Below are positions 7,354 to 20,999 of a stretch of DNA of 64,000 bases, in pieces (positions within the stretch are counted from its first letter, which is position 1; each line of letters starts with the position of its first letter). Below the pieces are notes generated by a model that was not told the DNA's origin, made no database searches, and saw nothing but the letters and a program-made list of their open reading frames with translations. Origin of the DNA: an uncultured Planctomycetota bacterium (GTDB taxonomy: Bacteria; Planctomycetota; Planctomycetia; Isosphaerales; Isosphaeraceae); assembly GCA_963845755.1 (NCBI GenBank), contig CAWJTV010000019.1, positions 32,001-96,000 on the forward strand, in the 5' to 3' direction. A program made the translations under genes and the position numbers.

Positions 7354-7427
7354 GGCCGGAGTGCTCAGGTGGCTAGAGCGCACCCCTGATAAGGGTGAGG
7401 TCCGAGGTTCGAATCCTCGTGCGCCCA
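7354..7427 (+). tRNA. tRNA-Ile(GAT)-like sequence with defective 5' acceptor strand (probable att-site copy or pseudo-tRNA)
   Basis: D arm GCTCAGGTGGCTAGAGC, anticodon arm CACCC-CTGATAA-GGGTG and T arm CGAGG-TTCGAAT-CCTCG are all present. The 5' GGCCGGA pairs only 5/7 with TGCGCCC and U8 is missing. Confidence 0.75.
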
Positions 7428-17648: not shown

Positions 17649-19151
17649 TCATCCTGTTCGGATTACGAGCGTTGAGGCGATGAAATCGTGGAGCGCCTGC
17701 TTTCTTGGCGTGAAGCCCGCCATCACGAAGCCGAACCCGAAGGTGATCCATGAGAAGGTCTTGGCGAGAAACCGGCCGAGGGCGTGACCGAACGAGATGC
17801 GACGGCCTTGGAGGTCGGTCACTTGGAGTCCCAGGGCCCTCTTGCCCAGGGTGGCCTGAGTCTTCGAGCTTTCCATCAACGTATAGTAAGCCAGAGGGCC
17901 GAACAGCATCATCACCCAGCCCAGGATCAATATGACGGGCTCGAAGGTCTGTGCCACTTCCTTAAGGCTCTTCGAAGCCTCGAGGATGCCAACGACGATC
18001 GCTGATTCTCCGAACCACAGGAGCGTCAAGACGAAGGTGTCGATGACCTTGGCCACGGCTCGCGACCAGAAACCTGCATAGCAGATCGTTCGGGCGCGGG
18101 TTTCGAACGGCTCGCCGCCGATCTTGGTCGTAGGTGCGACGTCGGGGTGTGGGCTTCCGTGAGTCTGCTGCGGTTCGTGACCAAGAGAAGGCGCGCCTTG
18201 GGTTTCGCGCGTCGAGGCGGTGGCACCATTCCCCGACGGTCCGTGGAAATTGACGTGAGCAAGCCTGATCCCAAAGCGCTCGCCCACGAGATCAGATTGC
18301 ACGAGTGGAGAAGGGTCGTGGTCGTGCACAATCAGAATCGGTACTCGATTGATCTGGCTGATCCGGATCACCTGCGACCAGCGGACGAAGCGGTGAATGT
18401 CGGCGGCTTTCCACTCACCGGTGTGGCTGAAGATCAGGATTGCCTCGTCGCCTCGCTTCGCCACGCAGGGGATGGAGAAGTAACCCAAGGGCCCATCGCC
18501 GATGGATTGAAACTCGACAGGTTCCCACCCCTCCGACTTGAGCTGTCGAACGGCATGCATCAGGTAGACGGCTTGCATCCCTTCCGGCCCGCCGCCGCCG
18601 AGAACCTGGATCAATGGTGGCACCTTCCCATCGGGTGTGGGATTGGTTGGCCAGTTGAGCCCAACAGCCCTCCCCGCGGATTCCTGGGAGGAGTCTTCGG
18701 TCTTGGGGGGTGAGGAGGGCACGGGCTTGAGTCCCATCTCGGGAATGTGTTGCTCTCGGACTCGCTTGAGCGACGTGAAAAAAGAGACAAGGCTATCCTC
18801 TTCGCCGTTGTCGATTCGCTTGGCCACCTTGCCGAGCGGGTTGCAGACGACATCGTCGGAGAGCTTGACGAGGACCGGCATGCTGGTTGCAACGCCATCG
18901 CCGGCTTGCCAGCTTCCGCCAAGATGGCGGATGATCACCTCGCCGAGATAGCAGCCGAATGTGGCGACGAGCCCCGGCATATCGTGGCTCTTTTTCTTCT
19001 CGTCATGGAACCGCTGAAGCAGCGGATCGATGGTGAGGAGACTCTGCGGAGAATAATCGAGGTCGAAGTGAAAGACTCTTGGTGCCTCGTCGACCGCGTG
19101 CGCAGCGGCCTCGGGGGCGGTTTCGGGGGTGAGCTGTTTAGTCTCGACCAC
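17649..19151 (-). CDS. Multidomain protein: DUF3806-like N-terminus and C-terminal RDD domain
   Basis: LDYSPQSL..ID, GCYLGEV..RH.GG.W, NPLGKVAK; YAGFWSRAVAKVID, QATLGKRALGL, KQALHD. AGGAG RBS before GTG 19151. Confidence 0.8.
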   Translation of the reverse strand: MVETKQLTPETAPEAAAHAVDEAPRVFHFDLDYSPQSLLTIDPLLQRFHDEKKKSHDMPGLVATFGCYLGEVIIRHLGGSWQAGDGVATSMPVLVKLSDDVVCNPLGKVAKRIDNGEEDSLVSFFTSLKRVREQHIPEMGLKPVPSSPPKTEDSSQESAGRAVGLNWPTNPTPDGKVPPLIQVLGGGGPEGMQAVYLMHAVRQLKSEGWEPVEFQSIGDGPLGYFSIPCVAKRGDEAILIFSHTGEWKAADIHRFVRWSQVIRISQINRVPILIVHDHDPSPLVQSDLVGERFGIRLAHVNFHGPSGNGATASTRETQGAPSLGHEPQQTHGSPHPDVAPTTKIGGEPFETRARTICYAGFWSRAVAKVIDTFVLTLLWFGESAIVVGILEASKSLKEVAQTFEPVILILGWVMMLFGPLAYYTLMESSKTQATLGKRALGLQVTDLQGRRISFGHALGRFLAKTFSWITFGFGFVMAGFTPRKQALHDFIASTLVIRTG

Positions 19152-19368
19152 GGTGGTACTCCTGCCCGGAGGGCATCCGGGGCTTGACCAGGTTTGCCGT
19201 TTTCTCTCTCGCGAAGGCAACCGGCGTAGGCAGGCGTGGTAAGACCCGGGTTCCGGCTTTTGACTCTCGCGCCGTCTCGGAGAATCATCCGGAACGCTGG
19301 TCTGACCCACGTGCTGGCGACGCCCCCAGGGCCAGATCCCGATGTTCCCTTGGGCTCCGGCCGTAGCA

Positions 19369-19480
19369 TCAGCGGAAGAGGCCGAGGTTCGGGAACACCT
19401 TCTTGAGCACTGCGACACCGGCGTCGGTGACGCTCGTGCGCGACACGAACAAGCCGCGAGGGTCCTTGAGAACCTTCAGG
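19369..19480 (-). pseudogene. C-terminal remnant of a leucine-rich-repeat protein
   Basis: LFVSRTSVTDAGVAVLKKVFPNL resembles planctomycete LRR C-termini; no upstream repeats remain. Confidence 0.45.
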
Positions 19481-19505
19481 GAACAAGTGGTGTTGGGAAC
19501 TAGTG

Positions 19506-19577
19506 GTGTCAGGTCGGTTTCCTGGAGAACAGGTAGTGTCAGTTCGATCTCCCGAGAGTGGGAAAGACGAACTGACA
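19506..19577. repeat. REP-like palindrome (GTGTCAG[G/T]TCG ... CGAACTGACA)
   Basis: Direct copies at 19506 and 19536; the inverted copy at 19568-19577 abuts the intron. Confidence 0.75.
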
Positions 19578-20223
19578 TTGCGCCAAGGAGCTCGGAAAAG
19601 GAGGATCGCCACAAACGTGAAACCTTTTGCAGGAACCCTGCGGGTCACCAATCCTGTCCGGTAGAGCTGGGCCAGCAGCCGGGAGCGAGTCTTGCGTGGT
19701 GGCGGGTGACCTCCACTGCGAAGTGTAGACCGCCAGGTCAAACGCTGTGTGATTGAGCCCCGAAATCATTCCTCGTGGGGAGTCCTCGTTGTTGTCAGAA
19801 GCGGGGACCGCGCCAGGCAACTTACCCATGGCCCACTCAGTGGAGCACCGGCTTACCAGCTCCGGGTTGATCCACAGCCAAGTCCTGGGCGGTTGGGGAC
19901 GAATCAGGCATACCACGATGGTATCGCCAAACGAAGGTAACGAAGTGCGGCGAGACGGACGTCGGGGAGTCGCAGTGCCCCAGAGTCGTGTGGAAGCAGG
20001 GGAACGGACCCTCCCGGACCCCGCGGAGCGAAGGGGCACCGCGTTGTGGGACCGGAGGCCGGAACCACGCGGAGGGCATCGAACCTCCGAGCGAGCCACC
20101 GCAGGGCCGATGGATCTTGCGAGGGACAGCGAATCCGCAACGTGACGAGCCGGATGCGCCTTCGACTGCGCACGTCCGGATCTGTGTGAGCCCTGGGGGA
20201 GCAATCCCCCAGGGCGACCCGGC
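19578..20223 (+). ncRNA. ORF-less group II intron (about 646 nt)
   Basis: 5' TTGCG start. Domain V GAGCCGGATGCG...CGCACGTCCGGATC (20147-20182). Domain VI hairpin GCCCTGGGGGA-GCAA-TCCCCCAGGGC then ACCCGGC. EBS1 loop TGTCAG (19793-19798) is complementary to the 5' exon CTGACA. No RT ORF. Confidence 0.88.
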
Positions 20224-20290
20224 CGAATGGCACGTTAGAAAAATATGTGTGCGATTCAGGTCTGACCCCGACGTTCCGCGACGTTCTGGT

Positions 20291-20999
20291 CTACGCAGCC
20301 CAATTTCTCACACAATTCTTCCTTCGCTGTTGTCGATAAATGACGATCCCGAGGCTGGCCAACGCCACCGATAAGAGGGTGATCGACGATGGTTCCGGTA
20401 CCATCACGGTCGACACGAAACCCATGACTCCATCACTACCGGGGATGGGGTTTCCCGAGTTGTCGAGTGGGATACTGAGAATCATCGGCTCGAACCCTTG
20501 CAGCGTAAAGGGGAGGCGCGAAGTTGTTGTCCGCGTCGCTTGATGTGCCGATTACGGTCAGGTTCGCCTCGATCAGCGATTGCGATAGGTCGTTCACGTT
20601 CAAGGTCGGAGGTGTAAGTAACGCTTCATATTCAACTGATGAGACCGCGAAAGGCGGACTCGTCAGTGCTCCGGTCGCGGGATCGGCGAAGAAGTAATTG
20701 AGCGTCAGAGTTGTACCCAGTTGTTCTGGTGAATACTGCAAGACCGGGTAAGTTGCCGCAAGCGAGCCTTGACCCACAGCCGGAAGGTTCGCCTGCGCGC
20801 TCGTCAAGTAGTATTTGTCCCAGTTTGCCCTGATCATTGCCACTTCCTGCCTAGCCGTCAAGTTCTTGAGCGCCGTGTCAATGACAACAGCCGCATTATC
20901 GACGACTGTGTCCCAGTAACCCGCTGCCATGGCGCCCGTCGGAGCCGAGGCAATTGCCATCGAGACCACCGCCATCAAACCGAGTTGGCGCACGTTCAT
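20291..20999 (-). CDS. PEP-CTERM sorting-domain protein 1 (frameshift near 20515)
   Basis: Signal peptide, AGGAG RBS, C-terminal VPEPSSITLL, TM segment and RQQRRK. Confidence 0.85.

Follow-up and report, generated by a model that had tools for sequence, protein, structure and literature searches.

The window analysed here is a 64,000-nt stretch of DNA on contig C19 of an uncultured Isosphaeraceae genome (14.27 Mb, 64% G+C, 49 contigs, 87.9% complete). In its intergenic space between two minus-strand genes, that of an RDD-family protein (17649–19418) and an ORF without Pfam match (20436–20999), lies a group II intron of 646 nt devoid of an ORF (19578–20223, plus strand). The intron starts with TTGCG at 19578 and ends with ...ACCCGGC at 20223, its RNA termini being UUGCG...GGC, and the first base of the 3′ exon, C20224 (plus strand), completes the arm of a hairpin. 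Because the intron lies outside any gene and in antisense orientation to its two neighbours, nothing selects for its splicing. A minus-strand ORF crossing the hairpin (19369–19614) was considered as an interrupted gene and rejected, since it has no Pfam match and removal of the intron adds no length to it. Elsewhere in the window, a tRNA gene is found at 7354–7427 (Rfam tRNA, 47.2 bits).

The domain I core is recognised at 19648–19849 (plus strand) by the Rfam model RF02005 (group-II-D1D4-6), with 76.6 bits and an E value of 1e-19, above the gathering threshold of 49. The EBS1 stem-loop, GTCCTCG-TTGTTGTCAGAAG-CGGGGAC, occupies 19782–19808 on the same strand and displays the EBS1 sequence UGUCAG at 19793–19798. 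Domain V (20147–20182, plus strand) is 36 nt long and combines the AGC triad with a 2-nt bulge and an 8-nt loop of non-GNRA type, CUUCGACU. Domain VI (20188–20223, plus strand) consists of a hairpin at 20190–20215 followed by A20217, which is unpaired and lies seven bases from the intron's 3′ terminus. Both domains are recognised by their sequence and by alignment to 12 relatives, and for domain VI also by a homologous fragment on contig C42 that aligns to the Intron_gpII model RF00029; this model is silent on domains V and VI of the window intron itself, even at E ≤ 10. No reverse transcriptase (RT) or maturase ORF is found in domain IV or elsewhere within the intron, and cognate RT proteins give no tblastn match at the locus; RT-encoding relatives of the same lineage do exist (L120–L122 and others). 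The first-pass annotation, which had described a 646-nt group II intron with domains V and VI and without an RT ORF, is upheld by the sequence. Of the two covariance models it had put forward as a check, the domain I model matches at 76.6 bits and Intron_gpII does not match. The window element is a group II intron with exact boundaries.

The upstream exon forms part of a hairpin. The 5′ arm, GTGTCAGTTCG (19536–19546, plus strand), faces a 3′ arm, CGAACTGACA (19568–19577, plus strand), whose last six bases, CTGACA at 19572–19577, constitute IBS1. The inverted repeat TGTCAGTTCG/CGAACTGACA (19537–19546 and 19568–19577) is 100% complementary, its arms being separated by 21 nt, and removal of the intron, together with the pair G19536/C20224, gives an 11-bp stem, in agreement with the earlier proposal that the 5′ exon is the 3′ arm of a hairpin extended by the next C. 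EBS1 pairs with the exon end CUGACA in all six positions, as had also been proposed from the complementarity of the loop to the upstream sequence. Furthermore, a repeat search reveals, at 19479–19552 on the plus strand, three left-arm units (GGGAAC..GTGGTGT[CAG..]) in the form of degenerate direct repeats, and the locus represents a small degenerate array composed of three left-like units and one right arm.

A different site lies 35 nt downstream of the intron, where the 14-mer GGTCTGACC, followed by CCGAC, is present and unoccupied (20259–20272). The same 14-mer occurs in 19 copies in the host genome, and in the same-genus genome G456 it is occupied (..GGTCTGACC^CCGACCTCCC) by an ORF-less intron of the present lineage, L059, with the EBS1 sequence GGUCAA.

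The lineage in related genomes and its target repeats

Across the phylum, 151 genomes were sampled, and RF02005 matches 28 of them, with scores of up to 192 bits. At class level, BLAST with the intron picks out 81 of 401 genomes, and within its own family, Isosphaeraceae, 53 of 98, so that the sister copies to be looked for according to the first reading are indeed present. By their record titles, the matches of an exact-pattern scan fall in Isosphaeraceae (Tundrisphaera lichenicola, Singulisphaera sp. GP187 and many MAGs), in other Planctomycetota and in a few other phyla. From 69 loci, chosen for a BLAST match starting within the first 13 query bases, 48 distinct 5′ ends were gathered. Twenty of them belong to ORF-less introns with both ends mapped (493–822 nt, 15 of which measure 729–750 nt), and 12 to introns with an RT ORF in domain IV. 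Another 16 are interrupted by the end of a contig or by a different insertion, or are unclassified. The ORF-less form is therefore more numerous than the RT-encoding form among the collected 5′ ends, a ratio that is merely indicative because the loci were selected by the start of the BLAST match. At one locus (L057, G540:C47), two ORF-less copies of 736 nt form a tandem pair with a spacing of 50 nt, and ATGGTGTCC precedes each of them.

In the literature on group II introns in Planctomycetes, Gemmata, Singulisphaera and Isosphaera, no description of this lineage was found. One preprint names Singulisphaera acidiphila, in a figure legend only, and the main text of Toro & Martinez-Abarca 2013 (PMC3552965) contains no mention of Planctomycetes, Isosphaera, Singulisphaera or UUGCG.

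The termini of the window intron depart from the consensus 5′ GUGYG ... AY 3′, and the non-canonical ends remarked upon at the outset turn out to be a property of the whole lineage. The sequence TTGCG/TAGCG or a close variant is observed at 47 of the 48 5′ ends, and CCGGC at 18 of the 20 3′ ends printed, all 20 of which fit the search pattern. Sister lineages of the same Rfam type (L045 and L078) carry GUGCG with ..GAC or ..GAU, from which it follows that the G-to-U change at the first position goes together with the A-to-G change at the penultimate one. This joint change fits the tertiary contact between the first and penultimate intron positions that Chanfreau and Jacquier reportedly found in yeast introns in 1993. 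One of these sisters, L045 (G089:C13, 1468–2130), is apparently an ORF-less D1D4-6 intron of ~650 nt with the canonical ends GUGCG...GAC, from another family of the phylum. The domain V loops of the lineage are mostly non-GNRA; among 20 related copies, RF00029 reaches its cut-off in four and remains below threshold in three, and it is absent at E ≤ 0.01 from the other 13.

The pairing between EBS1 and the upstream exon is supported by covariation. The position of EBS1 in the loop is fixed, and 10 EBS1 variants are observed among the 39 copies that retain the loop, with examples such as UGUCAG/CUGACA, GGACGC/GCGUCC, GGUCAG/CUGACC, GGACAC/GUGUCC and UGCCUG/CAGGCA for EBS1/IBS1. In 28 of these copies all six positions pair, in eight the score is 5–5.5, and in three, all visibly decayed, it is 4. 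Compared with the last six exon bases of 38 copies, the EBS1 column scores a mean of 5.64 out of 6, while the next best column reaches 4.21 and the median is 1.85. In addition, the first base of the 3′ exon is C in all 20 copies with a mapped 3′ end. The covariation between EBS1 and the exon, together with the C at +1, proves the boundaries and the pairing given in the first-pass annotation and shows that EBS1–IBS1 sets the target site, as stated there. As to its further question, whether all copies follow CTGACA repeats, the upstream flank varies along with EBS1 over the 10 variants. For EBS2–IBS2, no alignment column rises above background against exon positions −7 to −14, the best scoring 3.1 out of 6.

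Local hairpins are found at only part of the sites. At 8 of 48 sites, a perfect stem of 9 bp or more has its 3′ arm ending no further than one base from the insertion point; none of 960 shuffled flanks shows such a stem. The hairpin-bearing sites include that of the window, those of the RT-encoding introns L120 and L053 at the homologous GAACTGACA^CC, and that of L082, where compensatory changes are present in both arms. The remaining sites show conserved arm sequence alone, for example AAAATGAACTGACA, AAACTAGCTGCGTCC and AACCNNGTCTGACC. Across the lineage, the constant feature is the repeat-arm sequence and not the hairpin as such.

Intron-free palindromes of the form GTGTCAGTTC..GAACTGACAC are present in three of five related genomes searched (G544, G484 and G492), and a reversed control pattern gives no matches. 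These palindromes sit inside nested arrays in which many left units (GGAAATTGGTGTCAGTTCATTTT) are followed by many right units (AAATGAACTGACACCAATTTCC), and the right unit is the exact target of introns carrying UGUCAG. The left-arm units of the window resemble the GGAAATTGGTGTCAGTTCA units of such arrays at L123–L125. The arrays were seen at L124 (G484:C21, 1250–1950), L123 and L125, with left units either full or truncated, and their arrangement looks like the repeated self-insertion of a small palindromic element.

The host genome offers a different picture. No other GTGTCAG-N(0–80)-CTGACAC unit is found in it, GTGTCAG and related words are not enriched (720 occurrences versus 682 and 706 for similar words), and BLAST with the flanks of the intron (138 nt upstream, 177 nt downstream) finds no relatives there. 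A REP-like repeat family in the host genome is ruled out on these three grounds. Since repeat arrays exist in the relatives and the hairpin is unique here, the idea of a multi-copy palindromic target is right for the family and not for the host genome.

Host genome copies, internal deletion and reverse transcriptase

According to BLAST and RF02005, the window copy is the only near-complete member of the lineage in the host genome. Six further pieces are fragments cut by other insertions: 5′ fragments on contigs C27, C22, C3 and C15, each truncated by another insertion, and 3′ fragments on contigs C42 and C20. The four 5′ fragments belong to a second sublineage with the 5′ end UAGCG and 78–86% identity. 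They follow GGTGTCA or GGTGTCG, words similar to the left-arm unit of the palindromic repeat described above, and have lost their own EBS1; a relative from the phylum, L023, carries the EBS1 sequence UGACAC and is inserted after GCGTGTCA. The fragment on C27 (323300–324600, minus strand, locus L002/L008) is cut inside the EBS1 loop by a perfect hairpin, beyond which lies an ORF flanked by GGGGACATAAC / GTTATGTCCCC repeats. By its motif, this ORF is a putative IS200-like or REP-associated tyrosine transposase-like gene; TTATGTCCCC occurs 30 times in the host genome. The numerous other group II introns of the host genome are of D1D4-4 type; two such families account for at least 11 copies (contigs C47, C41, C3, C13, C16 and C45), with a domain V of the canonical 34 nt and 3′ ends reading ..CCCGAC.

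The window copy carries an internal deletion that had been overlooked in the first reading. In an alignment of 13 sequences, comprising the window copy and 12 relatives, 92–99 nt present in all 12 relatives are absent at the junction 19840/19841 (plus strand). The deleted segment of ~95 nt holds the 3′ strands of basal and internal domain I helices and the start, or one strand, of domain II. In the RNAalifold consensus derived from the relatives, 70 of 203 pairs thereby lose one partner, several of which covary with compensatory changes, and the window copy does not form the complete six-domain fold with a closed domain I. In keeping with the loss of these pairing strands, its RF02005 score is 76.6 bits, compared with 104–141 bits in 20 related copies. 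Judging from the alignment and the predicted consensus structure, the ribozyme activity of this copy has probably been lost. Short copies of 493 and 536 nt in other genomes point to comparable decay elsewhere.

The RT-encoding members of the lineage are known from related genomes. Full-length introns (L120, L121 and L122) measure ~2.0 kb, with RT reading frames of 476–517 codons from stop to stop. L120, with a frame of 476 codons, interrupts the hairpin GGTGTCAGTTCA...TGAACTGACACC at GAACTGACA^CC, and its protein contains Pfam RVT_1 only, without an endonuclease domain. Its closest solved structures are the IIC RTs 5hhl, 7uim and 6ar1 (E about 1e-44), with LtrA at 3e-40, and since LtrA is nearly equal to the IIC enzymes, these matches do not fix the RT class.

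In the 87.9% complete host assembly, by comparison, no match to the cognate RT is obtained at E ≤ 1e-40. Only remnants are present, namely 47 aa at 83–87% identity on C34 and frameshifted pieces on C24. The same-genus genome G456 possesses open copies of the cognate RT of 515 aa and 424 aa; no cognate RT that could act in trans is detected in the host assembly. Six other genomes with the intron RNA (G504, G328, G436, G364, G288 and G448) likewise give best RT matches no better than E 1e-44 to 1e-54, values typical of matches with 36–45% identity. The RT-encoding parent sought from the beginning is thus found in related genomes, but not in the host assembly. Because the latter is 87.9% complete and split into 49 contigs, the cognate RT could lie in unassembled DNA. 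Many copies of other group II RTs, with 30–43% identity to the cognate RT, are also present in the host genome, and cross-action of these proteins on the window intron may occur.

State of the window copy and nature of the family

It is probable that the locus holds a group II intron of the non-autonomous, ORF-less kind that is stranded and very likely inactive. The loss of ~95 bases of scaffold and the lack of a cognate RT in the genome make a dead relic the most likely state. Under this scheme, the parent would be a D1D4-6 intron of ~2.0 kb that codes for an RT/maturase devoid of an endonuclease domain, and loss of the ORF from domain IV would have given derivatives of ~740 nt. The parent protein would splice the ORF-less derivatives and retro-insert them in trans, with insertion by reverse splicing at a site defined by the six EBS1–IBS1 base pairs and the C at +1. 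The window copy, with its EBS1 UGUCAG, presumably inserted itself at CUGACA^C, within the right arm of one unit of a palindromic repeat, and would later have lost the ~95 nt in which the domain I helices have their 3′ strands and domain II begins; the cognate RT may have been lost from the genome, or may be missing from the assembly. Both the trans-mobilisation and the order of these events are inferred. Given that EBS1–IBS1 still pairs in all six positions and both termini are intact, one of the two events, insertion or deletion, may be of recent date.

A currently functional copy, spliced and mobilised in trans and using a multi-copy REP-like repeat of the host as a safe haven, is an unlikely alternative. 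The intact termini, the complete EBS1–IBS1 pairing and the presence of domains V and VI are all compatible with activity; the family as a whole behaves in this way in the relatives, and many other group II RTs are encoded in the host genome. Against this stand the ~95 nt missing from domains I and II, which leave 70 of 203 consensus pairs unpaired, the lack of a cognate RT at E ≤ 1e-40, the single copy of the deleted form, and the uniqueness of the hairpin and flanks in the host genome. The segment that is gone is needed for folding, and the copy is consequently unlikely to be mobile at present. The mobile non-autonomous retroelement envisaged in the first-pass annotation is, for this copy, not supported, in view of the deletion and of the assembly without a detected cognate RT.

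The deletion could also be an error of assembly or consensus, with the real locus holding an intact ORF-less intron of ~740 nt. The division of the genome into 49 contigs at 87.9% completeness leaves room for such an error. Short-read contigs were assembled from four public DNA runs, possibly of the source sample, and two of them (19578–19845 and 19717–19867) are identical to the window across 19840/19841; the second extends only 27 nt beyond the junction, and no record counts as bridging it. A search for RNA records containing the locus gave none. Nevertheless, two contigs agreeing with the window without differences, together with the decayed copies of 493 and 536 nt in other genomes, make an error improbable, and even less credible than a functional copy. 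Co-option of the truncated ribozyme as a structured non-coding RNA, or as a regulatory or terminator element for the minus-strand neighbours, has nothing direct in its favour beyond the position between two genes, and is very hard to reconcile with a single copy that is antisense to both neighbours, whose deleted form is not conserved elsewhere and for which G456, of the same genus, yielded no orthologous locus but just matches of 70–80 nt.

With the window copy taken as a relic, attention moves to the family. It is plausible, although somewhat less likely than not, that the ~740-nt ORF-less introns of Isosphaeraceae form a thriving SINE-like family living on the RT of their full-length relatives, with repeated EBS1 switches between palindromic repeat families, insertion into one arm of hairpin-forming units, splicing with a co-varied U1 and penultimate G, and a non-GNRA domain V. 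If so, the window copy would be one dead offshoot, and the odd termini and unusual domain V would allow the family to evade surveys based on domain V or on RTs.

The window locus itself is an ordinary, decayed mobile-element relic of little consequence for the host. The family outweighs it in significance, since roughly every second genome sampled from a single bacterial family carries an ORF-less form with a domain V of this kind. The lineage poses directly testable questions concerning the linked first and penultimate bases, the natural series of EBS1/IBS1 covariation and the preference for one arm of nested palindromes. We regard the family as a moderately novel variant among group II introns.

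Comparison with known systems

Class IIC introns have an IBS1 shorter than 6 nt and a ribozyme of about 400 nt; in contrast, the IBS1 of the present lineage comprises 6 nt and the ribozyme about 640–740 nt without the ORF. Moreover, only 8 of 48 lineage sites have a local stem that reaches 9 bp. Resemblance to class IIC is seen in the nearest solved RTs, which are the IIC enzymes 5hhl, 7uim and 6ar1, with a small margin over LtrA. Zimmerly & Semper 2015 (PMC4424553) describe three group II target specificities, namely homing sites, terminators and attC, and state that class C introns insert after terminator hairpins or in attC sites. Measured against this description, the lineage is similar in having an RT without an endonuclease domain, hairpin-forming DNA at the site and no detected EBS2, and differs in that insertion takes place inside the 3′ arm, 1–2 nt before its end, and not downstream of the stem.

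A second parallel is provided by UHB.I2, an IIB1/CL1 intron with the ends 5′-UUGCG..GU-3′ located directly after an attC site, as described by Sonbol & Siam 2021 (PMC7923331). Compared by that description, the two share the UUGCG 5′ end, an endonuclease-less RT and insertion beside a hairpin-forming site; the 3′ end of UHB.I2 is GU instead of GC, and it encodes its own RT.

RmInt1 of Sinorhizobium meliloti, according to Molina-Sanchez & Toro 2015 (PMC4496777), homes into ISRm2011-2 and decays by mutation and fragmentation. As in that system, the target lies in a multi-copy element, here in the relatives, and inactive or fragmented copies are found within the genome, here one deleted copy and six fragments. 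Unlike the present introns, RmInt1 copies as described there encode an RT, and their target is an IS gene and not the arm of a palindromic repeat.

The ORF-less introns of Thermosynechococcus elongatus, which Mohr et al. 2010 (PMC2882425) and Zimmerly & Semper 2015 (PMC4424553) report to be mobilised in trans by RTs of related introns, offer a further comparison. In contrast to that case, the present lineage spans a whole bacterial family, bears U1...G(penultimate) termini and a mostly non-GNRA domain V, and is represented in the window by an internally deleted copy in a host genome without a detected cognate RT. As in T. elongatus, ORF-less derivatives coexist in many genomes with RT-encoding kin of their lineage that share the same ends and the same target rule.
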